Source: Candidatus Hydrogenedentota bacterium (GTDB lineage Bacteria > Hydrogenedentota > Hydrogenedentia > Hydrogenedentales > SLHB01). From it: a DNA stretch of 14,358 nt. The stretch lies in assembly GCA_034408725.1 (NCBI GenBank), contig JAWXCN010000205.1, positions 1-14,358 of the forward strand, given 5' to 3'. A program made the position numbers and the translations under genes. The notes under the pieces are model-generated. The model did not search any database, was not told the origin of the DNA, and saw nothing but the letters and a program-made list of their open reading frames with translations. Shown here piece by piece: positions 1 through 12,158 of the stretch; the first letter of the stretch is position 1; each line of letters opens with the position of its first letter.

Positions 1-1497
1 GGTCACCTGGATGAGTTGCAGGGGCTGGTCCGCCGAGAGCGCATCGATAATGGCGCCGACGCGTTGCGCCTCGGCGAGGTCGACTTTTCCGCCAGAGGCC
101 TTGAAGAACGAGCCCACCGGCGGCACGCCGACATAGTGCTCGATATCTTCCGGCGTTTTTAATCCGTGGTCGAGGTAATCGAGGAAGAAGGCAAGCCCGA
201 TACCGCCGACGATTCCGGCAATCAGGCCCAGGAGCATGTTGAACATTTTGCGGGGCCGGATGGGATTCGTTGGGAGGTTCGGCTCGGAGATTATGACGAT
301 GTTGTTGATGCCGGCGAGCGATAACTGGCTGTTGACGCGGGCTTCCTGCACGCGTTCGGCGAAGAATGTGTACGACTCCTGCTTGATGTCCGCTTCTTCC
401 TGAAGCGCATCGTGCTCGTCAATGACGCTGTTCAACAGTTTCAGGCGGGTCTCGAGTTCGGCGATGCGTTTTTCAGATGACCCAGTCGCATTGGTGATCG
501 CATCGTTCAAACTTTTGACCGCCTGATCGATCTGTTCGTTAATGCTGATGACGTCTGGATGGTTCGGGCCTTTCGACGTGACCTGCTCGTTCCGGCGCAA
601 CAGCAGTTCGAGTAGGCGCAAGCGGAGCTCGGTGATTACGGAGCTTTCGGTCTCGCGGCTCAACTGCTGCATGATGGCGGAGTCGTCCGTCGTGTCCGTC
701 AACCCAGGTGGCACGATCCCGATTTCCTGAAGCTGGCCAGAGAGCTTTTTGGCGTTCGTGTATTCTTCGACGAGGATTTTGCGTTCGTCTTCCAGTCCGT
801 AGACGTTGTTCGTCTCGCGAAACTCTTTCAACTTGTCTTGGGATTCGCCCCATTCCCCGCGGAATTCGCTAAGCTTCATTTCAAGGACATCCGTCGCGCT
901 GTCCGGCGTGCGGAAAACTTCGTCGTGTTTGTCCTTGTATTTCACGAGCAGTATCGTGAGCACCTGCTGCGCCAACTCGGGAGAGCCCATGCGACAGCGC
1001 ACTTCCATCGTGTACGAGTCCTTGACGGCATGCACGGCAATTGCGCCGCGCAGCACCTCGACGGCGCCTTCGACGGCTTCCGGTTTTTTCTTGAGGTTCA
1101 GCATGACCTGCAAGCCGTTCAAGGCATCGCGAGCGCCGCTGACGATTGCGCGAACGCCGCCGCCCCTGCCGCCGAATCCTTCCTGATCAAGCTTCGCTTC
1201 CGTTACGACTTCCTTCAGCACGTCATCGCTGTAGATCATCTGGATTTCCGAGTTGAGGTCTTCCTCGGTCATTGAGATCATCGGCGTCGTCGCGCTGTCG
1301 GTCAGCGGTGTTGCGGTTTGAAGAGTTTCGCGGCCGCGCAGCATCTGCACTTTCGCGGTTGACTCGTAGGTTTGTGGCCAGATGATGTTGCAGACGTATA
1401 CGCCCACAACCACTACCACGAGAAAGAGCAGGATGAGCGCCTTGCGTTTGAACAAGACGGTCAGTATGTCCCGCAGGAAGATTTGACGTTTATCCAT
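1..1497 (-). CDS. Polysaccharide co-polymerase / chain-length determinant (Wzc/GumC-like), 3'-truncated at the window edge
   Basis: Not in the ORF track; I translated both ends by hand, and they are in the same frame. ATG at 1497 with GAGG upstream gives MDKRQIFLRDILTVLFKRKALILLFLVVVVVGVYVCNIIWPQTYESTAKV (Wzz-type N-terminal TM, PxxYES motif). The far end gives IISEPNLPTNPIRPRKMFNMLLGLIAGIVGGIGLAFFLDYLDHGLKTPEDIEHYVGVP (Pro-rich segment, TM2, typical Wzc linker), ending ...LQLIQVT where a BY-kinase domain would start. Lies directly downstream of the Wza-like gene. Confidence 0.88.
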   Translation of the reverse strand, partial: MDKRQIFLRDILTVLFKRKALILLFLVVVVVGVYVCNIIWPQTYESTAKVQMLRGRETLQTATPLTDSATTPMISMTEEDLNSEIQMIYSDDVLKEVVTEAKLDQEGFGGRGGGVRAIVSGARDALNGLQVMLNLKKKPEAVEGAVEVLRGAIAVHAVKDSYTMEVRCRMGSPELAQQVLTILLVKYKDKHDEVFRTPDSATDVLEMKLSEFRGEWGESQDKLKEFRETNNVYGLEDERKILVEEYTNAKKLSGQLQEIGIVPPGLTDTTDDSAIMQQLSRETESSVITELRLRLLELLLRRNEQVTSKGPNHPDVISINEQIDQAVKSLNDAITNATGSSEKRIAELETRLKLLNSVIDEHDALQEEADIKQESYTFFAERVQEARVNSQLSLAGINNIVIISEPNLPTNPIRPRKMFNMLLGLIAGIVGGIGLAFFLDYLDHGLKTPEDIEHYVGVPPVGSFFKASGGKVDLAEAQRVGAIIDALSADQPLQLIQVT

Positions 1498-1527
1498 GGT
1501 CTATACCTCGCGCTTCCGCCGTAGCCG

Positions 1528-2922
1528 TTATGGGTTTAAGATAGCACCGGGCAGACCCAGGCCGCCGGTATTCGGCACCACGGTCACACCGGAACTGAAG
1601 TTATTGCTCTTGCTCTTCGAATTGACCTTCTGCTCGTTCATGTAATACGTGCCGGACACGCCCAGCGTATTTTCGAACGGCACGATTTCTTCGATGTACT
1701 GTTCGACGAACAGGTTCGCGCGCGACACCAGTTTCTTCGGAACATACACCACGTCGAACCCGCGCAGCATAATATCGTTTTCGGTGCTGCCCTTGAGCAC
1801 ATTCGCGATGTTGGTCTTGTACACGTAGGGTTTTCCGTTCGGGTTGCGCCGGATGATCAGCACGCTATTGAGCCGCGAATCTTTCGTCGGTCCGCCGGCC
1901 ATGAGGATCGCCTGGAACGCTGACGGCGCGCCTTCCAGCGGAAACACGCCGTTATTGGCAACTTCACCGCCGATGTAGATGCGCGCGCCAGTCGCCTGCA
2001 CGACGTCCGTGGAGATATCGAGTTCGTTGAACGCCAACCCCTCGAAAGCTTCGCCGATGGACGTGCGCAACTCTTCGGTGCTGTATCCTGCCGCCTGCAA
2101 TTCACCGATCCTCGGCACGGATACGCGTCCGTCCGGCCGCACTGACACGACGCCGTTCATGCTGAGCAGCGACTGGTTGATCGCCGGGAACACGATCAGG
2201 TTTACGTCAGGCGTGTTCTTCAATACCTTGGCGGCCTCGGCCTTGACCGCGTCGCCCGCTTCCTGGACCGTCATGCCCGCGATCATCACGTCCGTGTTTA
2301 TCGATGGAAGGCGGATTTTCCCGTCCGGCCTTACGGCGATATCGCGGCTCATGTTTTCGAGCCGGTCCGGGTTGGAGAAGTCGACGTTCACGGTTATGCG
2401 CGGTTCGCCTTCAATGATCCCGGTTTTCGCATAGAGCTGGGTGAGCGTTTTGCGCAGCCCGAAGGGCGTGAGCCCCGACGCCTTAACATCGCCGACTTCC
2501 GGCATCGTGATGTAGCCGTCGGGCCGCACGGTCCGGTTCGAGTTGAGCGGCCAGTTGTTCAGGAAGCTAATTCCGATGAGATCGCCGACGTCGATTTTGT
2601 ACGACTCGGCATTACCCATTGGCGCGGTGAGCCGTACTTCCATGTTGTCTCCAACTTCGATGCGGTAGTCCCAGGGGACATCTCCTTCACGGAACTCGCG
2701 CAGCCGGAATTGGAGGCTGACCTTGTCGCCCACCTGGAGCAGATAAGCCGTATCGCCGCCGCTCATTTCCTCGATCTCAGCCTGCGTAATGTCCTGCGGC
2801 TCGCCTTTCGGGTCCAACACGATTGTGTGGTCCGTTGCCGCGCAACCTGCCAGCATCCCGATAGCCAGCAATAGCGCAAACCCGCTGGTCCGTGCCATTC
2901 GGCTTTCTCCCTTCGCTTTCAT
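1528..2922 (-). CDS. Polysaccharide export lipoprotein (Wza/OPX family) with three Poly_export motif sets and one SLBB domain
   Basis: Start moved to ATG 2922 (strong SD GAGGAGG); ATG 2898 is an alternative. Lipobox LAGC; three YxxxVGD motifs; three VRPDGxIxxP motifs; SLBB-like IYIGGEVANNGVFPL...AILMAGG; C-terminal DIMLRGFDVVYVP. Confidence 0.9.
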   Translation of the reverse strand: MKAKGESRMARTSGFALLLAIGMLAGCAATDHTIVLDPKGEPQDITQAEIEEMSGGDTAYLLQVGDKVSLQFRLREFREGDVPWDYRIEVGDNMEVRLTAPMGNAESYKIDVGDLIGISFLNNWPLNSNRTVRPDGYITMPEVGDVKASGLTPFGLRKTLTQLYAKTGIIEGEPRITVNVDFSNPDRLENMSRDIAVRPDGKIRLPSINTDVMIAGMTVQEAGDAVKAEAAKVLKNTPDVNLIVFPAINQSLLSMNGVVSVRPDGRVSVPRIGELQAAGYSTEELRTSIGEAFEGLAFNELDISTDVVQATGARIYIGGEVANNGVFPLEGAPSAFQAILMAGGPTKDSRLNSVLIIRRNPNGKPYVYKTNIANVLKGSTENDIMLRGFDVVYVPKKLVSRANLFVEQYIEEIVPFENTLGVSGTYYMNEQKVNSKSKSNNFSSGVTVVPNTGGLGLPGAILNP

Positions 2923-3053
2923 ACCTACCTCCTCATCGCCACACCCGGGGTGCAACCGGGCATTTGGTCGTTTCCACTCTCCACGCGGTCTCATTCTTCT
3001 ATCGCTAAATCCACATACGTCCACGCATGTCAGAATCGTTTTGTCATTTTCTT

Positions 3054-3842
3054 TTATCTCTGTGGCTGTGGTCCGCCGTGTTCAAATTGGCCCGGCTCCG
3101 ATGGCCGTTTTATCTGGGCATCGATTTGTGGACCTGACACATCACCCGGCTTCGTTGCGCCGGGCGGCAGGACCTTTTTCTCTCGTGCCCGCATGGTCGC
3201 GCCCAGTTCGGGCCGATTGATTTCGAGTTTCGGCGCGAACGTCTGCGACGGCTCGATTTTCCGCCGCTGGCGCGTACTCGGCGTAATGCGGAACTGGCCG
3301 CCGCGGCTTTTCAGCACGCTTGTGAATATTTCCGCGGGCAGCAAGCGCGCTTCCTTGAAAATTTCCGCGACCAAGGGCGCGGCGGCTTCGACGACCTGCC
3401 GCTCGATGCCGATTGTCCGCTCGCGGATTTGTTGGAACTCGTAAAACAATTGATCGCGCGCGAACTCGGCGGGCACTTCGACCATGTTCTCGTATTCCGT
3501 TGACATTTCCAACGTGTTGATCGTGATGCGGTAGCGTTCACCTGGATTCTGAAGATAGTTTGGCGCGGACGATTTCAGCACTTCGCTGCGCACCTCGATC
3601 ATATAGTCCGGCGCGGGGTTTGCCCGAGGCGAAATGCCGGGGCCGGACGGCGCTTGCTGGTGCAAATAGTCACCGGCGGAACGGGTCCGCTCGAAGACGC
3701 CGATGCGCAGTACGCCGTCCGTTTCTTCGATCAATAGTTGGCGGTTTTCATCCAGCGTCTGGCCGTGGTAGCGCTTCTCTTGTGCGTAGGACGCGGCGCA
3801 TGCGACAAGGACGGCAATGAGCAGCGCGCTATGACGAGGCAT
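3054..3842 (-). CDS. Hypothetical secreted protein
   Basis: 262-aa ORF with a Sec-like signal peptide (MPRHSALLIAVLVACAASYA). Its start overlaps the end of the upstream nucleotidyltransferase, so it is probably operonic. Pro/Gln-rich C-terminus; no family recognised. Confidence 0.72.
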   Translation of the reverse strand: MPRHSALLIAVLVACAASYAQEKRYHGQTLDENRQLLIEETDGVLRIGVFERTRSAGDYLHQQAPSGPGISPRANPAPDYMIEVRSEVLKSSAPNYLQNPGERYRITINTLEMSTEYENMVEVPAEFARDQLFYEFQQIRERTIGIERQVVEAAAPLVAEIFKEARLLPAEIFTSVLKSRGGQFRITPSTRQRRKIEPSQTFAPKLEINRPELGATMRAREKKVLPPGATKPGDVSGPQIDAQIKRPSEPGQFEHGGPQPQR

Positions 3843-4806
3843 TCGCGTTCTCCTCGAACAACCCGGTCAGGCCGCGCAATTGGGATTGCCGCGTGATGAC
3901 GGTGTCAGTATGGGCCTTGCCATCGTCGAGCACGACGTCTGAAAGCACGACGCACCGTTCGAGCCTTGCGGGTTTCCGCACGATGACGCGATCGCCCAAG
4001 ACGGTATCGGTGAGCTCCGTGCCGCGCGCAACGCTGCATTGGTCGCCCATCAGCGCATGTTTGTTCAGCTTGCGCAACTGGTGCATGCAGCAATCGATAA
4101 GGTCGCGTGTGTAGGTTATGTTGACGTCCCAGTCGACGACGGGCGCAATGCGCACGGCGAATTCGTAGTCGATCAGTATCTGGATAGAATCGGTAAGTTC
4201 GTACTCATCGCGCATCGCCGTGCGCGGCGTTCTGCGAATCGCGTCGAATACGGGCATGTCGAACAAATAAAGACCGCAGCCCTTCAGCATGTTCGGCACA
4301 TGACGCGGCTTCTCGATGACACGGCGAACCGTGCCGTCTTCGCGCAATAAGACCGCGAAGTTCCGTTTCACGGCTTCTGCGTCAGTCTCTTCCCTTACCG
4401 CGAGCACGGCGGCGCACGCGTATTCTTCCATGACTTCCATCATGCGGCGTAGTTCGGGTATCTCGAAAAAGATGTCGCCGAGCATCAGCAAAAATGGCCG
4501 GGACACATGCTGCTCGAGCTGGCCAACGGCGTGCGCAATGCCCAGGCGCTGCTGCTGCTCGACATAACGAATCCTTAGTCCGAACCGGCTGCCGTCGCCC
4601 AGCGTTTGCGTAATGCGATGGCCGAGGTGTCCGATGACGATAAATACTTCCTCGATGCCGGCGTCCTTCATGTATTCCAATTGGTACACCAACAGCGGCT
4701 TGTTGCAGATCGGCACGATGGGTTTTGGCATTTCTTCGCCGAAAGGCCCCATGCGCGAGCCGTGGCCCGCCGCGAGAATCACGCCCTGATATGCCGCTTC
4801 ACTCAC
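3829..4806 (-). CDS. Sugar-phosphate nucleotidyltransferase (glucose-1-phosphate thymidylyltransferase-like, with short C-terminal beta-helix-like region)
   Basis: GVILAAGHGSRMGP..MPKPIVPICNKP NTP-transferase signature, plus LGIAHAV, MLGD, IEKP and EYELTDSIQ motifs; GTG start. Substrate not determinable. Confidence 0.9.
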   Translation of the reverse strand: MSEAAYQGVILAAGHGSRMGPFGEEMPKPIVPICNKPLLVYQLEYMKDAGIEEVFIVIGHLGHRITQTLGDGSRFGLRIRYVEQQQRLGIAHAVGQLEQHVSRPFLLMLGDIFFEIPELRRMMEVMEEYACAAVLAVREETDAEAVKRNFAVLLREDGTVRRVIEKPRHVPNMLKGCGLYLFDMPVFDAIRRTPRTAMRDEYELTDSIQILIDYEFAVRIAPVVDWDVNITYTRDLIDCCMHQLRKLNKHALMGDQCSVARGTELTDTVLGDRVIVRKPARLERCVVLSDVVLDDGKAHTDTVITRQSQLRGLTGLFEENANASS

Positions 4807-4815
4807 AGGAAGTCC

Positions 4816-5802
4816 TCACCGCCGCACCGGCATGTCGTCATATCCGCCGGCCAGAATCCAGTCTATCGTGCGCTGCAAGCCGTCTTCGAGTGACACACTC
4901 GCTTCCCATCCGAGCAGCGCTTTCGCCTTCGAGCTGTCCGCTTCCACCCGCTGAATTTCACTTTTTTGCGGGCGAATGCGGCTTGCATCGGTCACTATTT
5001 GCAAATCTTTATTCATCAGATTGGCAATGAGCTGTGCCAGGTCTCCAATGGTTACCGCGCGGGTCGAACCGAAGTTCACTACCTCGCCGATCACGCTGTC
5101 GGCTTCCGCAGTCCGAATGAACGCGTTTACGATGTCGTCGACATACGTGAAATTGCGGGTCGGCGCAAGATCGCCCAACCGCAACTCGGCGCCCCGCGCC
5201 AGTTGCAGAATAATCGTTGGAATTACCAGAAACTGGCCGATTCGCGGTCCGTATACATTGAAGATACGGCAGGTCGCAACCGGCAATTCGTATGTGAGAT
5301 AAAAACTCTCCGCCGTGTGGTCCGCGGCGAGTTTGGACGCCGTGTATGGGTTGTGCGCCGCCACCGGGTGTGTTTCGGTTATGGGCCGGCCGTCTTTCGA
5401 CGTGCCGTAGACCCCGGCGGATGACGTATGCACGACGCGCCGCACGTGCTCGTGCCGCGCCGCGTTGCACACGTTCAGCGTTCCCATGACATTGGTGATA
5501 ATGGTTTCTTCCGGGTTCGCATAGGAGTATGCCACACTCGTGATGGCGGCATGATGAAAAACCGTGTCCACCCCCTGCGTTGCCTCTCGCACGAATGCGC
5601 CATCCCGGATGTTGCCACCGCATATCTCGAGGTGTTTGGCTAATGGAGCGGGTACGCCGGCGAGATAGCCCACGCTGCCGCGCATATTGCCGTGGACCAT
5701 GCCCCGGACTTCCGCGCCGCGCTCCAACAATTGCTCGCACAGGTGGCTTCCGATGAAGCCTCCCGCGCCCGTTACCAGCACTTTGCGCCCTTTCCATTCC
5801 AT
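4816..5802 (-). CDS. NAD-dependent epimerase/dehydratase (extended SDR)
   Basis: VLVTGAGGFIGSH Rossmann motif, YTASK (YxxxK), RIFNVYGPR, RNFTYVDD. Start set at ATG 5802, which overlaps the upstream stop (TGATG coupling). Confidence 0.92.
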   Translation of the reverse strand: MEWKGRKVLVTGAGGFIGSHLCEQLLERGAEVRGMVHGNMRGSVGYLAGVPAPLAKHLEICGGNIRDGAFVREATQGVDTVFHHAAITSVAYSYANPEETIITNVMGTLNVCNAARHEHVRRVVHTSSAGVYGTSKDGRPITETHPVAAHNPYTASKLAADHTAESFYLTYELPVATCRIFNVYGPRIGQFLVIPTIILQLARGAELRLGDLAPTRNFTYVDDIVNAFIRTAEADSVIGEVVNFGSTRAVTIGDLAQLIANLMNKDLQIVTDASRIRPQKSEIQRVEADSSKAKALLGWEASVSLEDGLQRTIDWILAGGYDDMPVRR

Positions 5803-6593
5803 CACCCGGTCCCCGCGACGAGCGGTTTTTGCCAAACACCGAGGATATGCGTGCTGAAAGTGCGTAGGCCTGGTAGGCGAGTCTGGGCGCGTTCGAGTGC
5901 CCGCAACGCCAATGCCAGCGGAGAATTAAAGATGAAGAACGCCCACATGCCCGCGAGCATTTCGAGGCGGACAGCATTGAACCCTGCCCGGTGAAATAGC
6001 TGTTCCAATGTACGTGGCGTGTTTGCCCGGTAGTAGGTGCGAAACGTGTCCTCCGAATGGCCACCAAACAGTTTTTTCTTCATGATCTGTTTGACACGAT
6101 AGGGAACAAGGCCAGAAACCAGTGCGAACACGCTCATGCGGTTCGGCGTCAACACGGCGATGACGCCACCGGGCCGTAGCACGCGCCAAAACTCGTGGAA
6201 CACCTGCAATGGCGCCGCGACGTGTTCGATGACGAATTTGCAGACGATAACATCGAAGGCTCCGCTCCGGAATGGCAGAGTTTCCAATGGGGTCGCCACG
6301 CGATCGCGCAAGAGGACGTTTGCGCGCAGCCCAGCGAGGTCCATGTCACACCCGACCGCCTGTTTGGCGCGCTGAATCGCCGGCAAATCGGGATCGCCCC
6401 GCGACGAGCCGGCGTCGAGCACGATGCTCTCGTTCGTTATATAGGCTGCGAGGGCCGCGTCGTACGCGCCATTCACGTCGCGAATCCAGCGCATCAATAG
6501 GCCGTACTTCCGCGCGCCGAGACGCGCGGCGATGTCCTCGGGGATGGCCAGCGACGGCCTATCCTGCGATGGTTTCGGCAAAGATGCGCTCAT
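5802..6593 (-). CDS. Class I SAM-dependent methyltransferase
   Basis: VLDAGSSRG (variant motif I), GCD, LPFRSGAFDVIV, VIEHV, EFWRVLRPGG. Start set at ATG 6593 (MSASLPKP), overlapping the end of the GT gene; the exact start is uncertain. Confidence 0.85.
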   Translation of the reverse strand: MSASLPKPSQDRPSLAIPEDIAARLGARKYGLLMRWIRDVNGAYDAALAAYITNESIVLDAGSSRGDPDLPAIQRAKQAVGCDMDLAGLRANVLLRDRVATPLETLPFRSGAFDVIVCKFVIEHVAAPLQVFHEFWRVLRPGGVIAVLTPNRMSVFALVSGLVPYRVKQIMKKKLFGGHSEDTFRTYYRANTPRTLEQLFHRAGFNAVRLEMLAGMWAFFIFNSPLALALRALERAQTRLPGLRTFSTHILGVWQKPLVAGTG

Positions 6594-7659
6594 AATCGTC
6601 CGTAATCTGGTCCCAATCGTATTCAGCGCGTACACGCTCGACGGCGACCTTGCGGTAGCTCGCGACCTCATCGGGATGCTCGACGAGCCACTGCAATTTC
6701 TCGCGCAGGTCTTCGACGTCGCACGTGCGAAATGACACGCCGGCGTGGGCGACGGCTTCGACGTTGTACGAAATGTCGCTCACCAGCACGCAATTGCCCG
6801 CGCCCATCGCCTCGAGAATCGCGGGGTGCGTTCCGCCGACTTCCATGGCGTTGACATAGGCGTATGCATTGGCCTGGAGCGCCTTGTAGATGTCGCCGTA
6901 GAGGCCACCGGGAAACTTGATGCGCGGGTCCTTCGTCGCTTTCAGTTCGCGGATGTAGTCGTCCGCAAATGGCGCGCTTCCCACGATCAGCAACTGCATG
7001 TCCGTTTTCACGCCTTCAAACGCTTTCACCAGTACGTGCGCGTTGTTTTCCGGTTCGAGGCGGCTCACGAACAAAAAATATTGCTCGGGCTTGAGGCCGA
7101 AATCCGCGAGCAACTCCCGCTTGAAGCCCCGTTCAACGATGTCGGCGCCATAGGCGACATATGTCGTGTCGCGGCCAAACTTCTTTTTGTAATATTCCTT
7201 AATCACGCGTGAATCCGCGATCAGCACGTTGGAGAACTTCGCGGCGATCCATTCCGCCGCTTTGAAATAGGCCTTTGCCGCGCGGTTCCACTTTGCCCGC
7301 TCCCATTCCAGGCCGTCCGTGTTTAAGACCACCTTGATGCCGAATAAACGGGAAAGCCACGTAAATGCGCTGTTACCCGAACTACAGTAACAACCGGCAT
7401 CGGCCCCGTGCATCACGAGGTGCAGGGTCGACAGGAACGTGTGTGTGATCGAGTCCAAATGCTTTGTATGAATGGTGGACTGATACACGAGGCGTACCCC
7501 GCGGTATGTTTCCAGCCGCTCCGTATAATGTGTGCTTCGGCAATAGACCGACACGTCGTGTCCTTTGGCCGCGAGCCGGACGGCCACCTCTTCCACAAAA
7601 GTTTCAAACCCGCCGTAATTCGCCGGAATTCCGCGAGTCCCCAGGAATGCAATCCTCAT
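6559..7659 (-). CDS. Glycosyltransferase family 4 (GT-B) with DUF1972-like N-terminus
   Basis: MRIAFLGTRGIPANYGGFETF N-terminus; NTDGLEWERAKW; FVSRLEPENN; EVGGTHPAILEAM (EX7E-type region); SDISYNVE. Confidence 0.93.
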   Translation of the reverse strand: MRIAFLGTRGIPANYGGFETFVEEVAVRLAAKGHDVSVYCRSTHYTERLETYRGVRLVYQSTIHTKHLDSITHTFLSTLHLVMHGADAGCYCSSGNSAFTWLSRLFGIKVVLNTDGLEWERAKWNRAAKAYFKAAEWIAAKFSNVLIADSRVIKEYYKKKFGRDTTYVAYGADIVERGFKRELLADFGLKPEQYFLFVSRLEPENNAHVLVKAFEGVKTDMQLLIVGSAPFADDYIRELKATKDPRIKFPGGLYGDIYKALQANAYAYVNAMEVGGTHPAILEAMGAGNCVLVSDISYNVEAVAHAGVSFRTCDVEDLREKLQWLVEHPDEVASYRKVAVERVRAEYDWDQITDDYERIFAETIAG

Positions 7660-7884: not shown

Positions 7885-7924
7885 AAAAATAGCGCGCGCG
7901 GTCCCCTAGAAAGCGACCGCGCGC
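7885..7924 (-). terminator. Rho-independent terminator of the psp operon
   Basis: Perfect 10-bp stem GCGCGCGGTC (7894-7903) / GACCGCGCGC (7915-7924), followed on the minus strand by GCTATTTTT; 27 nt after the pspC stop. Confidence 0.75.
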
Positions 7925-7951
7925 AAAATCTCGAAAATAGCCTGCCTGTGT

Positions 7952-8467
7952 CTACCGCTCGTTTAGCCGCCGTTCCCAATCGTATTCATGTGCCGTAACC
8001 AGGTTTTCCATGCGTCTAATCCGGCGTTCCAGATTGTCGAAAGTCCGCTTTAATCGGGAAAGGGCCATGGACCGGGAACTGACGTAGGAGTCGTAGAACT
8101 CTTGTTCCGAATCTTCCTCAAACGGGACCACCGGCTCTGGTTTCATGACCAAGGCGACGATAATGTATCCGATGATGAGCGGCCAGAATCCGAATACGAC
8201 GGTGGCGACGACGGCGATAATTCGAAACGCTTTGACGGAGAAGCCGAGGTATTCGGCAACACCGCGGCACACTCCGAAAATCATTCCGTTGCGCGAGCGG
8301 TAAATCGGGCGTCCACAGGCGCTATCATAGTGCATATGGTCAGGCCGCGTGCGTCCTGTCCGTTCTTCTCGACGCATCCGCCGGGACTCCCGTTCGAGCA
8401 TTTTTGAGCGCCGCCGCACGTCACGCCAGGATTCGGTTTCGGGATCGGTGTCGCTATCGTGTCCCAC
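7952..8467 (-). CDS. pspC: Phage shock protein C
   Basis: IYRSRNGMIFGVCRGVAEYLG PspC signature, a TM segment, and a C-terminal coiled coil FDNLERRIRRMENLVT. Start reassigned to GTG 8467 (AAGGAGG SD, 4 nt after the pspB stop); the longer ORF-track version overlaps pspB. Confidence 0.9.
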   Translation of the reverse strand: MGHDSDTDPETESWRDVRRRSKMLERESRRMRREERTGRTRPDHMHYDSACGRPIYRSRNGMIFGVCRGVAEYLGFSVKAFRIIAVVATVVFGFWPLIIGYIIVALVMKPEPVVPFEEDSEQEFYDSYVSSRSMALSRLKRTFDNLERRIRRMENLVTAHEYDWERRLNER

Positions 8468-8471
8468 GGTG

Positions 8472-8726
8472 TTATACCTCCTTCTTTTCCCGCTCGCGTT
8501 CGAGCAGAAGGGTCTCGAGGGCCTCGACGCGCTCTTCCATCTTGAGCAGTCCGTGATAGACGTCCTGGATGAGTTTTGCTTCGTCAATGTTGCTCGCCCG
8601 GCTACCCGGTTCGTTTGATCCAAAGATTGTCTTCACGATTCTGAGAACGATGACAAGCCCAATCGTTCCGAACACGCACAGTATCGCCACGATGGGAATC
8701 ATGACAGCAATTGCGCCTACGTCCAT
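8472..8726 (-). CDS. pspB: PspB-like membrane protein
   Basis: N-terminal TM plus C-terminal coiled coil KMEERVEALETLLL (PspB-type RxxxLExIL); immediately upstream of pspC; SD GAGGAGG. Confidence 0.75.
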   Translation of the reverse strand: MDVGAIAVMIPIVAILCVFGTIGLVIVLRIVKTIFGSNEPGSRASNIDEAKLIQDVYHGLLKMEERVEALETLLLEREREKKEV

Positions 8727-8781
8727 AAAGTTGCTCCCTCCTCGAACACTCCCGTGCTCGAAACCGAAACGGTATTCTTAT

Positions 8782-9096
8782 CTATCTAAACCGCGAATCG
8801 CGGTCCAGCATCAGCGTCTCAAGCGAGTTGAGCCGGTTTTCCATGCGCGCGAGTCCCCGGTACACGTTTTGCATAACGCGGGCTTCTTCAGGGGCATTCC
8901 GGCGCGCGCGCCGGGCAGATGGCAGACCGAGCAGCCACACGACTACCATGACAATTAACAGAGGTATGCCAAAAATCGCGAACAACCAGGCCGCGCACAG
9001 CACGAAATAGATTGCCACTGGAACGATGATACCCAGAACAAGGCTGGCAATGAGCGCGAACACCGCGGCAATTATCGAGAGTATTCCAGAAATCAT
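8782..9096 (-). CDS. Second PspB-like protein with a long N-terminal hydrophobic region (probably 2 TM)
   Basis: About 57 hydrophobic residues, then EEARVMQNVYRGLARMENRLNSLETLMLDR, which aligns without gaps to DEAKLIQDVYHGLLKMEERVEALETLLLER of the adjacent PspB. Confidence 0.7.
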   Translation of the reverse strand: MISGILSIIAAVFALIASLVLGIIVPVAIYFVLCAAWLFAIFGIPLLIVMVVVWLLGLPSARRARRNAPEEARVMQNVYRGLARMENRLNSLETLMLDRDSRFR

Positions 9097-9117
9097 GTAG
9101 CAGCCCCTTTCCCGGTC

Positions 9118-9597
9118 CTAGTCAAACTCGGCCATGCGCCGTTCGCGCTTGCGCAGAATGCGGCGCGCGCCGCACTCGATGGATCGCTTGCCCGGATTGA
9201 ACGCACTGGAGGCCTGAAAGGCGAGTGCGATGCCCCAGCCAATCATCGGGTACACAAACCAGACATCGTCAATGCCCGTCATGAAATTCAAGAGCATCAA
9301 CGCGCCGTTGATTATTAAATATGCGCGAAGGTGCCTGTAGAACCTTTGCTTGCGTTCCGCTTTATATTCTTCGCAGGCGGATTCGAAGGCGCCGAACTTC
9401 CGTTGTTCGCGAATCGCACGTTCGACTTCTCTCGGGTCCAATCCGAGTTCGCGCGCGGTATCGATGAGTTCGTCACGGGTGATTTCGCCGGAGTCGCGTT
9501 TGCGGTTCAATGCGCGCCGCAAGATAGCTTCGACTTCGCCGACGGTGAACATCGTCTCGCGTTCGGCTTGACGTTCTGTGCGGTATTCGTTTGGCAT
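9118..9597 (-). CDS. 2TM-domain membrane protein with N-terminal helical domain
   Basis: FYRHLRAYLIINGALMLLN...WFVYPMIGWGIALAFQA is typical of the 2TM domain. N-terminal EVEAILRRAL...ELIDTARELGLDPREVERA is helical. AAGGA upstream. Confidence 0.78.
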   Translation of the reverse strand: MPNEYRTERQAERETMFTVGEVEAILRRALNRKRDSGEITRDELIDTARELGLDPREVERAIREQRKFGAFESACEEYKAERKQRFYRHLRAYLIINGALMLLNFMTGIDDVWFVYPMIGWGIALAFQASSAFNPGKRSIECGARRILRKRERRMAEFD

Positions 9598-9626
9598 ATC
9601 CGCGGTTTCCTTTTGCGCGTTTACAT

Positions 9627-9663
9627 CCCCCTAAATCCCCCTTCAAAGGGGGACTTTAGGAGG
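9627..9663. repeat. REP-like palindromic element between pspA and the 2TM gene
   Basis: CCCCCTAAATCCCCCTTCAAAGGGGGACTTTAGGAGG: TCCCCCT/AGGGGGA stem extended by CCTAAA/TTTAGG, with one bulged C. Confidence 0.65.
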
Positions 9664-9693
9664 CCACTGAATGTCGGTCGTCTGCTTGGAGGT

Positions 9694-10356
9694 TCAGCCT
9701 TGCTTCTTTGCCTTTAGTTCCGCGAGCTGTTTTTCGATCTCTTCGTCGCCCGCGAGTTTTGCGAATTCTTCTTCGAGTGTGGCCGTTTTTTTACCGAAGT
9801 TCACGAGGTCCGCTTCGGCTTCCATGCGCTCGATGCGCTGCTCGAAACTTTCAAATCGCGCCATCGCTTCGACGTTGTCGTTCCTGCGAACATTTTCCTG
9901 CGTCTGGCGCCGCTTCTGGGCGGCGACGTGACGCTGTAGCAGCACGCGCTGCTTTTCGCGGGCGGACGACAACTTGTCCTCAAGCTGCATTATATCCTGC
10001 TGGTACTGTTCCACAAGCCCGTCGCAATGGGAAAGTTCGCGTGAAATCGCGTCGGACCTGTCGCGGAAGCGGCGCTTTTCGAGCAAGGCTTCGCGGGCGA
10101 GGTCTTCGCGGCCCTTGTCTACGGCCAACTGGGCCTTGCCGGCCCAATCCTGTTCGCGCTTGGATACTTCGTCGGACTCGCGCTGAATCTTCTTTTTTGT
10201 GGCCATCGCGCCCGCGCACGACGCCTTTACTTCGACGAGCGTGTCTTCCATTTCCCGGATCATCAGCTTGATCATCTTTTCGGGGTCTTCAGCCTTTTCG
10301 ATCATTGAGTTGATGTTCGAGCTGATGATGTCGCGCACGCGTGTGAAAATACCCAT
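9694..10356 (-). CDS. pspA: Phage shock protein A (PspA/IM30, ESCRT-III-like)
   Basis: MGIFTRVRDIISSNINSMIEKAEDPEKMIKLMIREMEDTLVEVK, GREDLAREAL, FESFEQRIERMEAEAD; 220-aa coiled coil; SD AAGGAG. Confidence 0.97.
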   Translation of the reverse strand: MGIFTRVRDIISSNINSMIEKAEDPEKMIKLMIREMEDTLVEVKASCAGAMATKKKIQRESDEVSKREQDWAGKAQLAVDKGREDLAREALLEKRRFRDRSDAISRELSHCDGLVEQYQQDIMQLEDKLSSAREKQRVLLQRHVAAQKRRQTQENVRRNDNVEAMARFESFEQRIERMEAEADLVNFGKKTATLEEEFAKLAGDEEIEKQLAELKAKKQG

Positions 10357-10383
10357 TGTATGAGCTCCTTAAACCTTGAATAC

Positions 10384-10860
10384 CTATACGTTTCCAGCCA
10401 GAACATCCGCTCCGGCCCGTCCCGGGATGGCTGCCGTAAATGGCCGGATTGTCCAGGCCGCGCGCACGGGATTTCCCGACGGTTGGGGCATGTCCAAAAC
10501 TCCCGAAGCAGCGATTGCGTGGGTGACCAAAGTTGAAATCGTGGTAATCGCGTCCGGTTCGTCATAAATGACCCGAACGCCTGCGACAAAGCGTTGGCCT
10601 CGCTTTTCCGGGTTACACCAGACGATTTGACCTTTAAGCTCGACGGGCTTTCCTGCCGATCGTACCTCGTCGGTGTTCAGCAGTACGTGGGTGCCAGGCC
10701 GAAGGTATCGGCCCATGTGGAGCCGCAGGCCGCCGCGGCTTACGTCCGCCGCGATTGCGGTCCCTGGATTGCCCGCCCCGTGCCAGTACGACAAGCGCCC
10801 GCCGAACGCGACCCGCGCGAAACTTCGAGCATCGTCAAATCCTGTGCGCAACCCCGACAT
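10384..10860 (-). CDS. Stand-alone PilZ-domain protein (putative c-di-GMP receptor)
   Basis: RSFAR (RxxxR) and DVSRGG (D/NxSxxG) motifs, plus LKGQIVW and AGVRV strands. ATG 10860 preferred to TTG 10890, which would leave only about 10 nt of leader after the predicted sigma54 start site. Confidence 0.78.
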   Translation of the reverse strand: MSGLRTGFDDARSFARVAFGGRLSYWHGAGNPGTAIAADVSRGGLRLHMGRYLRPGTHVLLNTDEVRSAGKPVELKGQIVWCNPEKRGQRFVAGVRVIYDEPDAITTISTLVTHAIAASGVLDMPQPSGNPVRAAWTIRPFTAAIPGRAGADVLAGNV

Positions 10861-10910
10861 CTTTTCCGAGCTCCCATCAGTTGTAACCAATAAAGAGGCG
10901 CCGGGAGTAG

Positions 10911-10926
10911 AGCAACCGGTGTGCCA
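10911..10926 (-). promoter_or_regulatory. sigma54 (-24/-12) promoter of the pilZ-psp operon
   Basis: Minus strand TGGCACACCGGTTGCT = TGGCAC-N5-TTGCW with exact GG/GC spacing; predicted TSS near 10900. sigma54 control of pspA is established in proteobacteria. Confidence 0.85.
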
Positions 10927-10942: not shown

Positions 10943-10970
10943 GTATCCCACTGAAAGAAAATGACTTACG
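10943..10970. promoter_or_regulatory. Possible IHF-binding / bending region between UAS and sigma54 promoter
   Basis: Minus strand GTAAGTCATTTTCTTTCAGTGGGATAC has partial matches to WATCAANNNNTTR in both orientations, at the position expected for IHF. Confidence 0.3.
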
Positions 10971-11003
10971 CCGACAACCGGCCGGAAAGCGGTTGCCCGA
11001 CCT

Positions 11004-11038
11004 TATGCTTCTCAACCAAAGTGTGGTGGATTTGGCTA
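11004..11038. promoter_or_regulatory. Putative PspF-type upstream activating sequences
   Basis: TGGTGGATTTGGCTA (11024-11038) and a weaker 15-mer TATGCTTCTCAACCA (11004-11018), 5 bp apart, about 105-140 bp upstream of the predicted TSS. The first resembles the E. coli PspF UAS as recalled from memory (TAGTGTAATTCGCTA); this needs verification. Confidence 0.45.
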
Positions 11039-11117
11039 TTCCACGGTTTGCCGCGCGGTGTTTTTGAACCAGGCGCAATCGGGCTTAATTGCGAATTGAC
11101 CTTGTCCATGCAGGCAA

Positions 11118-11329
11118 GCGGCAGCTATCCGCTGCCGCCTTGGCTGTTTATCGTAGATGGTCTGCCCCTCAACACGTGCGCGCACAAAGTCCTCGCCCAT
11201 AAACAGCCAAAGCGGTGTCTGCGCTACCCGCTCCGCCACCGCAGTCCAAATAGTCCTTCTCCCAAAGACAACTTAGTCTTCCACGCAAAACCACATTTTA
11301 ACGAGAAGTCTTATTTGGACTGCGGCGGC
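11118..11329. repeat. Cluster of REP-like inverted repeats (REPIN/BIME-like)
   Basis: Hairpin GCGGCAGC-TATCC-GCTGCCGC (11118-11138). 18-bp inverted pair 11134-11151 / 11199-11216 (16/18). 18-bp inverted pair 11235-11252 / 11312-11329 (17/18), extended by CTTCTC/GAGAAG. Confidence 0.75.
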
Positions 11330-11492
11330 CTCAAAGGCGCTCCGCGCGGATTTTGGACGTCAATTGCCTCGCGCGACGCTTTGGAATATGCCCAAATCAG
11401 CGGCACTTTTCTTGGCGTCACGCCAGTTATTTCGAACTTAAGCGCGTTGACTTGGCCTTTCAACGGGTCGAGAGATACCGCGTATGTGCCCG

Positions 11493-11501
11493 TGCTATAG
11501 T
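11493..11501 (+). promoter_or_regulatory. Possible extended -10 promoter of the response regulator
   Basis: TGCTATAGT (TGn-TATAGT) 30 nt upstream of the ATG; no good -35. Confidence 0.3.
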
Positions 11502-11531: not shown

Positions 11532-12158
11532 ATGATGCGAATTTTGGTGGCGGAGGATGATGCGTTTTCGCGCAAGGCGTTGAGCGGGGTGCTTCAGCGG
11601 CTCGGGTACGATGTGCTGGCGGTTGAAAATGGTGACGAGGCGTGGAGCGCGTTTTGCGGGCCGGACTACCCCAGGATTGGAATTCTCGACTGGATGATGC
11701 CGGGATTGACTGGTATTGAACTCTGCCGGCGCGTCCGGACAATGCCGGAGATACAGTCCATTTACCTTATTTTGCTGACCTCCCGGTCAGGCACGGAGGA
11801 CATTGTCGAGGGACTGGAGGCCGGGGCGAACGATTATATTACGAAGCCTTTCGACGAAAACGAGTTGCTGGCGCGCGTCCGCGTAGGCGAGCGTGTGCTT
11901 GACCTCGAGCAACAACTGCACAACCGCGTCGCGGAGTTGGAAGCGGCGGCGGCGCACATCAAGTGTCTTCAGGGAATCCTGCCGATTTGCATGTTTTGCC
12001 ATCGCATCCGGGACGATGAGGAGTTGTGGCGGCGGATTGAAGAATATCTGATGCAGAATTCAGATGTGCAATTGAGCCACGGTTTATGCCCGCAGTGTTT
12101 TGAAAAAAACTATCCGGACCTGTATGCGAAGAGCCAGGAGGAGGCTTCGTCAAACTGA
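11532..12158 (+). CDS. Response regulator: receiver domain plus C-terminal Cys/His-rich domain, no HTH
   Basis: ILVAEDD, ILDWMMPG (phospho-acceptor Asp), LLTSR, GANDYITKPF; coiled linker; LPICMFCHRIRDD...SHGLCPQC tail; SD GAGGA. Confidence 0.92.
   Translation: MMRILVAEDDAFSRKALSGVLQRLGYDVLAVENGDEAWSAFCGPDYPRIGILDWMMPGLTGIELCRRVRTMPEIQSIYLILLTSRSGTEDIVEGLEAGANDYITKPFDENELLARVRVGERVLDLEQQLHNRVAELEAAAAHIKCLQGILPICMFCHRIRDDEELWRRIEEYLMQNSDVQLSHGLCPQCFEKNYPDLYAKSQEEASSN

Follow-up and report, generated by a model that had tools for sequence, protein, structure and literature searches.

Why would an operon of the phage-shock protein (Psp) response open with a gene for a PilZ protein and not with pspA? 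The question is raised by contig C205 of a Candidatus Hydrogenedentota genome (5.17 Mb, 92% complete), whose 14,358 bases were analysed as a whole and are called the window below; named homologues and related records back the placement in this phylum. Membrane repair by PspA/IM30/ESCRT-III proteins is common to all domains of life and, to our knowledge, the tie of this activity to wider cell signalling is poorly known outside enterobacteria. The second messenger cyclic diguanylate (c-di-GMP), for its part, is best known for biofilm and motility decisions. If psp operons across a phylum are headed by a c-di-GMP receptor, this would be a first hint from genomes that the messenger is an input to, or an output of, the membrane-stress response. 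Our analysis indicates that the PilZ-headed psp operon is a real, conserved and previously undescribed Psp variant.

PilZ as the first gene of psp operons

Six minus-strand genes of the window follow each other in the order PilZ, pspA, a gene for a 2TM-domain protein, two pspB-like genes and pspC (Table 1), with gaps of 27, 96, 21, 55 and 4 nucleotides from PilZ to pspC. A preliminary description of the window had proposed six co-oriented genes with gaps of 4-96 bp, the first of them encoding a PilZ protein with intact RxxxR and DxSxxG motifs and ending 27 bp before pspA, between one perfect sigma-54 promoter at 10911-10926 and a single terminator at 7885-7924. All these elements were found at those coordinates. 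The first protein matches the Pfam PilZ model above its cut-off, its RxxxR reads RSFAR (residues 12-16) and its DxSxxG reads DVSRGG (residues 39-44); the promoter motif is exact, and folding against shuffled sequences upheld a strong hairpin followed by UAUUUUU. By its PspA, PspC and promoter the operon is assigned, at the sequence level, to the PspF/sigma-54 kind of Psp system.

The predicted promoter TGGCACaccggTTGCt is the sole exact TGGCAC-N5-TTGC within the window and lies 50 nucleotides ahead of the PilZ ATG. When up to one mismatch is allowed, the window contains three matches against 1.32 expected, so the motif by itself is not significant and the evidence is its conserved position. 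That position was surveyed in 28 PilZ genes, with (near-)duplicate loci excluded (L015, L016, L018-L021, L033, L039 and L040), counting elements that kept the GG, had at most two mismatches and lay within 150 nucleotides of the start. Such an element precedes PilZ in 27 of the 28 genes, in 25 of them with at most one mismatch, mostly at -52 to -76 relative to the start codon. Inside PilZ and the next 150 nucleotides, only six scattered matches with two mismatches occur. A separate promoter between pilZ and pspA, which the preliminary description had named as contrary evidence, did not appear: no sigma-54 element with at most one mismatch lies inside PilZ or before pspA in the 28 genes, and a simple sigma-70 scan gave no site at the PilZ-pspA junction of the window. 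The genome carries rpoN.

The neighbourhood survey for which the same description had called was made on 135 Hydrogenedentota genomes, searched with our own PilZ family profile (83 genomes matched, 130 matches listed) and with PF04012 (103 genomes matched; 150 matches listed, 139 of them strong, and 7 further matches). Linkage in related genomes was borne out: 85 of the 139 strong pspA matches listed have a PilZ family match directly upstream on the same strand, the matched stretches being separated by 0-322 nucleotides (median 120 over the 85 pairs listed). Counted from the other side, 85 of the 130 PilZ family matches listed sit before pspA, and one more sits before a pspA cut by a contig end. 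At least 71 of the 103 pspA-bearing genomes have the pair, which is present in 8 of the 12 families with pspA (genomes with the pair/genomes with pspA among the matches listed: f1 38/50, f2 4/5, f3 0/11, f4 1/1, f5 0/1, f6 0/1, f7 10/13, f9 1/1, f10 14/15, f11 2/3, f12 0/1, f13 1/1), and at least 14 genomes have two pairs. These counts are descriptive and carry no statistical test, as kin genomes are not independent. pspA follows PilZ directly in 32 of 34 fetched loci. Of the 83 genomes with a PilZ family match, 82 contain pspA as well; in the remaining one, G116, PilZ lies next to pspF where the contig ends. Chance does not account for the PilZ-pspA pairing.

Three PilZ-headed layouts were distinguished. 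The window type, with a 2TM gene after pspA, occurs in 11 genomes of two genera; its full six-gene order recurs in locus L012, and in L013 with an additional PspB-like match. The second layout consists of PilZ, pspA and a short pspC adjacent to pspF, and the third of PilZ, pspA and pspB. In the PilZ-headed layout PilZ occupies the place between promoter and pspA. The classical layout, with pspF divergent from pspA, coexists with the PilZ-headed one in the phylum. In one locus of genus g18 (L014:2392-7560), a pspF-adjacent PilZ-pspA-pspC and a PilZ-pspA-pspB stand in tandem on one strand, as though the entire PilZ-pspA unit had been duplicated in tandem.

The window's genome has a second psp locus, on contig C163 (G000 L011:6613-9369), where pspF diverges from a sigma-54-like element, TGGCATggcggTTGTt, that is followed by PilZ (Pfam E-value 7.8e-8), pspA and a pspC of 73 amino acids. 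Downstream of this pspC lie three open reading frames without clear families. The two copies are 51% identical in PspA and 31% in PilZ, and two of the 10 PilZ matches of the genome directly precede its only two pspA genes. The C163 locus also encodes the single PspF of the genome that exceeds the equivalog cut-off (477.7 against 443.55 bits; domains Sigma54_activat, AAA_lid_14 and HTH_8); none is encoded in the window. All 99 genomes with a PspF match have exactly one. Consequently, in two-operon genomes a single activator must serve both operons.

About 100 nucleotides ahead of the window promoter lies the inverted repeat ACCAcacttTGGT, a candidate site for PspF. Its form ACCA-N5-TGGT was found with at most one mismatch in 11 of 27 loci (shuffle mean 1.9, maximum 5), and 4 of the 27 have it exactly, against a shuffle mean of 0.085. 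Ten loci have it at -96 to -102 from the promoter, and alignment A4 has conserved CCA..TTGG columns. ACCA-N6-TGGT gave no enrichment, N5 being the right spacing. Ten of the 11 loci with the repeat have no adjacent pspF, and at most one of 11 pspF-adjacent loci has it; the latter loci carry related CCA...TTGG/TTAGC half-sites, recognised by eye only. PspF may bind at either kind of upstream site.

Compared with the enterobacterial system of Escherichia coli and Yersinia (pspF divergent from pspABCDE), the Hydrogenedentota operon is alike in its sigma-54 promoter, in a PspA above the equivalog cut-off with the N-terminal MGIF...AEDP, in a PspC above its cut-off, in PspB-like membrane partners and in a sensor-less PspF encoded once per genome. 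It differs in that its first gene is PilZ and not pspA, that pspF adjoins the second PilZ-pspA-pspC operon instead of the window operon, and that the window adds a 2TM protein and two PspB-like genes; Pfam annotation identified no pspD or pspE among the proteins of the window or of the C163 locus. Ravi et al. 2024 (mSystems, PMC11237479) catalogue Psp variants in which PspB is duplicated, PspC carries a PspB-like tail, or 2TM or SHOCT-like segments occur. In the main text of that survey the terms PilZ, c-di-GMP, 'second messenger' and 'cyclic' do not occur, and the one supplement consulted names neither PilZ nor Hydrogenedentes; its web application and full tables may list such neighbourhoods. 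Literature searches pairing PilZ or c-di-GMP with PspA or PspF returned, among the entries listed and read, no description of such a link. As far as these sources reach, the arrangement is absent from characterised Psp systems, as the preliminary description had supposed. The nearest printed precedent that we found for a second-messenger link to the PspA/IM30 family is in cyanobacteria, where ComFB receptors of cyclic dinucleotides are joined to PspA/IM30-like coiled coils (PMC12448109). According to the parts of that report that we consulted, the likeness is the physical association of a receptor for cyclic dinucleotides with a PspA/IM30-like segment; the differences are another receptor fold, a fusion instead of an operon, 'limited similarity' to PspA, another phylum and no sigma-54 psp operon.

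The PilZ family of Hydrogenedentota

The AlphaFold2 model of the window PilZ (predicted local distance difference test, pLDDT, 81.9) contains a six-stranded beta-barrel at residues 17-97, a helix at 102-119 and a disordered tail at 124-158. Foldseek gave 29 PDB matches at E ≤ 0.001, those listed being PilZ domains. The best are Alg44 PilZ with c-di-GMP (4xrn/4rt1, E 6e-6), and further ones are YcgR, BcsA, MapZ (5xly, bound to CheR1) and MotI. Our family profile also matches Alg44 by sequence, at the stretch QRQFARV...DLSAGG. With the PilZ domains of Alg44, MapZ-CheR1, YcgR and BcsA the window protein thus shares the barrel fold (Foldseek E 6e-6 to 5e-4, TM-score on target up to 0.74) and the RxxxR and D/NxSxxG motifs. 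Unlike them, it belongs to a distinct family with invariant W81-C82, G94 and a GRYLRPG loop, all named members of which are from Hydrogenedentota, and it has pspA as its genomic partner, which none of them has.

Motif conservation was counted over 39 aligned family members. Both arginines of RxxxR (R12 and R16) are invariant, as is the final glycine of DxSxxG, whose first position is D or N in 37 members and E in two. W81, C82, G94 and the GRYLRPG loop are specific to the family and nearly invariant (about 36 of 39), and are candidates for a partner surface. From the motifs and the predicted fold we infer that PilZ probably binds c-di-GMP and could have the 'input or output' role that the preliminary description had assigned to it. 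In the genome, whose assembly is 92% complete, GGDEF is matched 7 times, PilZ 10 times and EAL not at all; breakdown of c-di-GMP may rest on HD-GYP enzymes.

A word-based search returned 49 proteins of the family, the named ones among them all belonging to Hydrogenedentes or Hydrogenedentales. A full HMMER search gave 327 representative clusters at E ≤ 1e-10, of which the 10 looked up carry no taxon name. Within the family, PilZ diverges to about 30% identity.

In-frame stops (TAA or TAG, one or two) were seen in the PilZ matches G087:C104, G047:C125, G046:C170, G122:C388, G044:C78, G045:C32 and G098:C129, and at least those of G122, G044 and G045 lie directly upstream of pspA. Decay of these copies or errors in assembly may account for the stops. 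On the PspA side, weak PF04012 matches (E 1e-10 to 1e-14) in frames of about 270-300 amino acids were seen in family f1 (G088:C62, G086:C33, G096:C4, G082:C17, G095:C44 and others); this class consists of distant PspA/IM30-like paralogues unlinked to PilZ.

A proposed role of PilZ at the PspF-PspA node and competing explanations

That the PilZ-psp pairing is kept across much of the phylum suggests an undescribed link of c-di-GMP to membrane repair. We hypothesize that PilZ binds c-di-GMP, joins PspF and PspA as a third partner and is induced with PspA in a feedback loop, and we judge the chances of this proposal to be about even. According to it, a phage-shock operon presumably dependent on sigma-54 and PspF would have a small single-domain PilZ fixed as its first gene, co-transcribed with PspA from their shared, stress-induced promoter. 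PilZ would bind c-di-GMP and act in the Psp regulatory node beside PspF, as the sensor-less activator, and PspA, as both PspF inhibitor and membrane effector, whichever of the two is its presumed partner. The level of the second messenger would then tune, upwards or downwards, the strength or duration of the Psp response and, as PilZ itself would be induced, a feedback loop would result. The 2TM protein, both PspB-like proteins and PspC would form the membrane side of the system. We favour a third partner because each paralogous operon keeps its own PilZ, because the PilZ family is confined to pspA-bearing genomes and because the nucleotide motifs are conserved. A more specific form of the proposal, in which PilZ serves the sensor-less PspF, or PspF in complex with PspA, as a detachable sensor of c-di-GMP, is tentative and in our opinion rather doubtful; if true, an ESCRT-III-type membrane-repair response would be gated by a second messenger throughout the phylum.

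Parts of such a scheme are found in other sigma-54 systems. HrpR/S of Pseudomonas syringae is a sensor-less sigma-54 activator whose inhibitor HrpV is counteracted by the small HrpG, and FleQ is a sigma-54 activator with c-di-GMP-dependent output, in which the activator itself binds the nucleotide. By analogy only, the two together suggest that a three-partner, c-di-GMP-tuned scheme could work. Unlike these systems, the Hydrogenedentota one has no homology to HrpV or HrpG, and the proposed nucleotide carrier is a separate PilZ protein and not, as with FleQ, the activator. PilZ, PspA and the AAA+ domain of PspF are small and soluble, and the mechanism is directly testable though the phylum is uncultured.

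A weak lead to the partner comes from residue 240 in the AAA+ lid domain of PspF (L011 numbering, ELG-W). Of 11 PspFs encoded next to a PilZ operon 10 have Trp there, and all 9 encoded next to a PilZ-free operon have Arg or Cys. In a tally of 95 of the 99 PspFs, Trp was present in 40 of the 65 whose genomes have a linked pair, in 4 of 9 with an unlinked PilZ and in 1 of 21 without the PilZ family; among sequences outside the discovery set, the figures are 35 of 60 with a linked pair against 1 of 12 without the family. This Trp could mark a contact or no more than a lineage, and we regard it as a lead and not as a result.

Several observations weigh against PilZ as a third partner. In families f2, f10 and f13, PilZ is linked yet the PspF lid site is Arg (19 of 19), and the association of Trp with PilZ is confounded by kinship. 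PspA sequences beside PilZ (25) and PilZ-free ones (18) differ in one conservative column, V/I at residue 43, so that PspA carries no PilZ-specific signature, and this comparison does not favour a co-adapted PspA surface. A search for fusions among longer proteins gave one match, PilZ with PEGA, and no PilZ-PspA or PilZ-AAA+ fusion, which is weak evidence. PilZ is absent from 54 of the 139 strong pspA matches listed. All 18 PilZ-free pspA genes examined have a sigma-54 element with at most one mismatch 64-181 nucleotides before pspA, and 9 of these 18 loci have a divergent pspF. Psp thus works without PilZ in the same phylum, since PilZ-free pspA genes carry the sigma-54 element directly ahead. 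Nor is it established that one PspF controls operons of both types, because ACCA-N5-TGGT is found mainly in loci without adjacent pspF. As for the nucleotide, the Ser position of DxSxxG reads S in 18, G in 17, C in 2 and D in 2 of the 39 family members, and the C163 paralogue has NVDQGG in place of the motif. Given that Gly replaces Ser in half of the family and that the C163 copy is altered, some PilZ copies may not bind c-di-GMP.

Three other explanations have to be weighed. PilZ could be a stress-induced c-di-GMP effector that acts on a target outside Psp, such as a motor, a polysaccharide synthase or a transporter; a behaviour controlled by c-di-GMP would then change under envelope stress, and PilZ would be made with PspA as both are needed simultaneously. 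Known single-domain PilZ proteins are indeed adaptors on unrelated targets, the fold matches MapZ-CheR1, YcgR and MotI, and a polysaccharide export and synthesis cluster adjoins the window's operon. The missing PilZ signature in PspA fits equally well, and so does the faster evolution of PilZ, whose median end branch of 0.56 is about five times that of PspA (0.10); the trees of the two proteins agree in supported terminal groups, and the deep nodes of PilZ lack resolution. A shared output would need one PilZ, however, whereas each of the genomes with two pairs keeps a separate PilZ in each operon. The near confinement of the family to pspA-bearing genomes is also unexpected for such an effector. 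Moreover, the polysaccharide neighbours are not conserved, the flanks being common to the closest relative only, and five family members unlinked to pspA that were examined have unrelated and varying neighbours without a common theme (WD40, redoxin, ankyrin, MBOAT, Na/H exchanger). We consider a target outside Psp possible, though doubtful. That the PilZ fold is a protein-binding module only, for example a PspA chaperone or assembly factor in which nucleotide binding is lost or irrelevant, seems to us unlikely. The replacement of the DxSxxG serine in 21 of 39 members would agree with it, as would the two members with E at the first position, the DxDxxG/NxDxxG of the C163 paralogue and its orthologue, the family-specific invariants outside the nucleotide motifs and the lack of an EAL match in the genome. 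The invariant arginines and last glycine and the D or N in 37 of 39 members are nevertheless hard to explain without a ligand; the window copy has both canonical motifs, in a genome with 7 GGDEF and 10 PilZ matches.

PilZ might, finally, be a passenger gene, inserted once between promoter and pspA and co-inherited with no role in Psp. All pair-bearing genomes fall within a single order of the phylum, so that the counts are due in part to common descent, and PilZ-free Psp operons work in the same phylum. A mere passenger would not be expected to stay paired across 8 families despite the divergence of PilZ, nor in both paralogous operons; reading frame, motifs and the spacing from promoter to start are maintained as well, and in-frame stops occur in only 8 of the 130 PilZ family matches listed. 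We regard a passenger as highly improbable, and PilZ as a c-di-GMP-binding third partner of PspF and PspA is the explanation that we prefer.

Features and surroundings of the window operon

Table 1. Features of the psp operon in the window (positions in the 14,358-base stretch).
Feature	Positions	Strand	Evidence
PilZ gene (158 amino acids), first of operon	10384..10860	-	Pfam PilZ PF07238, 37.4 bits against cut-off 22.5, E 3.5e-9
pspA (220 amino acids), 27 nucleotides past PilZ stop, own AAGGAG	9694..10356	-	TIGR02977, 264.6 bits against 242.95
2TM-domain membrane protein (159 amino acids)	9118..9597	-	PF13239, 64.4 bits against 24.8, E 1e-17
PspB-like 1 (104 amino acids), extra N-terminal transmembrane segments	8782..9096	-	TIGR02976, 26.2 bits, E 7e-6, under cut-off 51.7
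PspB-like 2 (84 amino acids)	8472..8726	-	TIGR02976, 29.5 bits, E 7e-7, under cut-off 51.7
pspC (171 amino acids), GTG start 8467 behind AAGGAGG	7952..8467	-	TIGR02978, 112.6 bits against 104
Putative sigma-54 promoter TGGCACaccggTTGCt (-24 GG / -12 GC)	10911..10926	-	exact TGGCAC-N5-TTGC at 10912-10926; position conserved
Inverted repeat ACCAcacttTGGT, candidate activator (PspF) site	11015..11027	-	about 100 nucleotides ahead of sigma-54 promoter
Intrinsic terminator: GC-rich hairpin (7925-7893) and UAUUUUU	7885..7925	-	-25.9 kcal/mol
Hairpin without U-run in the 96-nucleotide pspA-2TM gap	9627..9663	-	-26.3 kcal/mol, z -3.27, 0 of 200 shuffles as good

The assignments of PspA and PspC are also supported by Pfam (PF04012, 145.6 bits against cut-off 33.9, E 2e-42; PF04024, 53.6 bits against 25, E 2e-14). 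The start of PilZ is placed at ATG 10860, behind a GGGAG Shine-Dalgarno sequence, TTG 10890 being less likely. For pspC, a TTG-started frame at 8623-7952 was ruled out, as it overlaps pspB and GTG 8467 has a Shine-Dalgarno sequence. The first approximately 47 amino acids of this PspC are unconserved, and the L012 orthologue is 90% identical over residues 48-171 only.

The names pspB' and pspB of the preliminary description hold in part. The two genes are paralogous matches of TIGR02976 (35% identity to each other, E 2e-13), with Pfam PspB E-values of 0.018 and 0.057, and because both proteins score under the NCBIfam cut-off we call them PspB-like, paralogues of each other by sequence. The 2TM protein has a conserved helical N-terminal part, two transmembrane helices and a basic C-terminal helix, and its AlphaFold2 model is all-helical (pLDDT 74). 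PF13239 matches 11 of 11 orthologues, and the N-terminal part has faint SHOCT matches only, in 3 of the 11 (best E 0.087). The label 'sensor' for the 2TM and PspB-like proteins is a guess. None of the six operon proteins matches a defence family in PADLOC, and Rfam has no match within the window.

The terminator hairpin has a z-score of -4.65, with 0 of 200 shuffles as good, and had been missed by a simple terminator scan. The hairpin between pspA and the 2TM gene may set differing levels of PilZ and PspA relative to the membrane proteins. It is significant in two of the six related loci folded (the window and L013), and hence not a conserved feature. L013 has a far longer hairpin in this gap (L013:7155-7300, -67 kcal/mol, with CGAGCA-type repeats), and the four other relatives have none.

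An open reading frame in the gap upstream of the operon (10961-11500, 179 amino acids) is probably no gene, having neither a Pfam match nor a counterpart in the closest relative. Downstream of the psp terminator, a polysaccharide cluster extends over positions 1-7659 of the minus strand, with genes for a Wzz/GNVR chain-length protein, a Poly_export/SLBB exporter, a family-less open reading frame, a nucleotidyl transferase, an NAD-dependent dehydratase/epimerase, a methyltransferase and a GT4 glycosyltransferase. The locus of the closest relative ends in the first gene of this cluster, the glycosyltransferase, and no other fetched locus matches it. On the opposite side, divergent from the psp operon across a gap of 600 nucleotides, lies a response regulator gene (11532-12158, plus strand), which was ruled out as part of the system, as its product lacks an AAA+ domain and it is syntenic in the closest relative only. 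Besides a receiver domain, the product has a C-terminal part rich in Cys (C-x2-C ... C-P-x-C), to which no Pfam family could be assigned.

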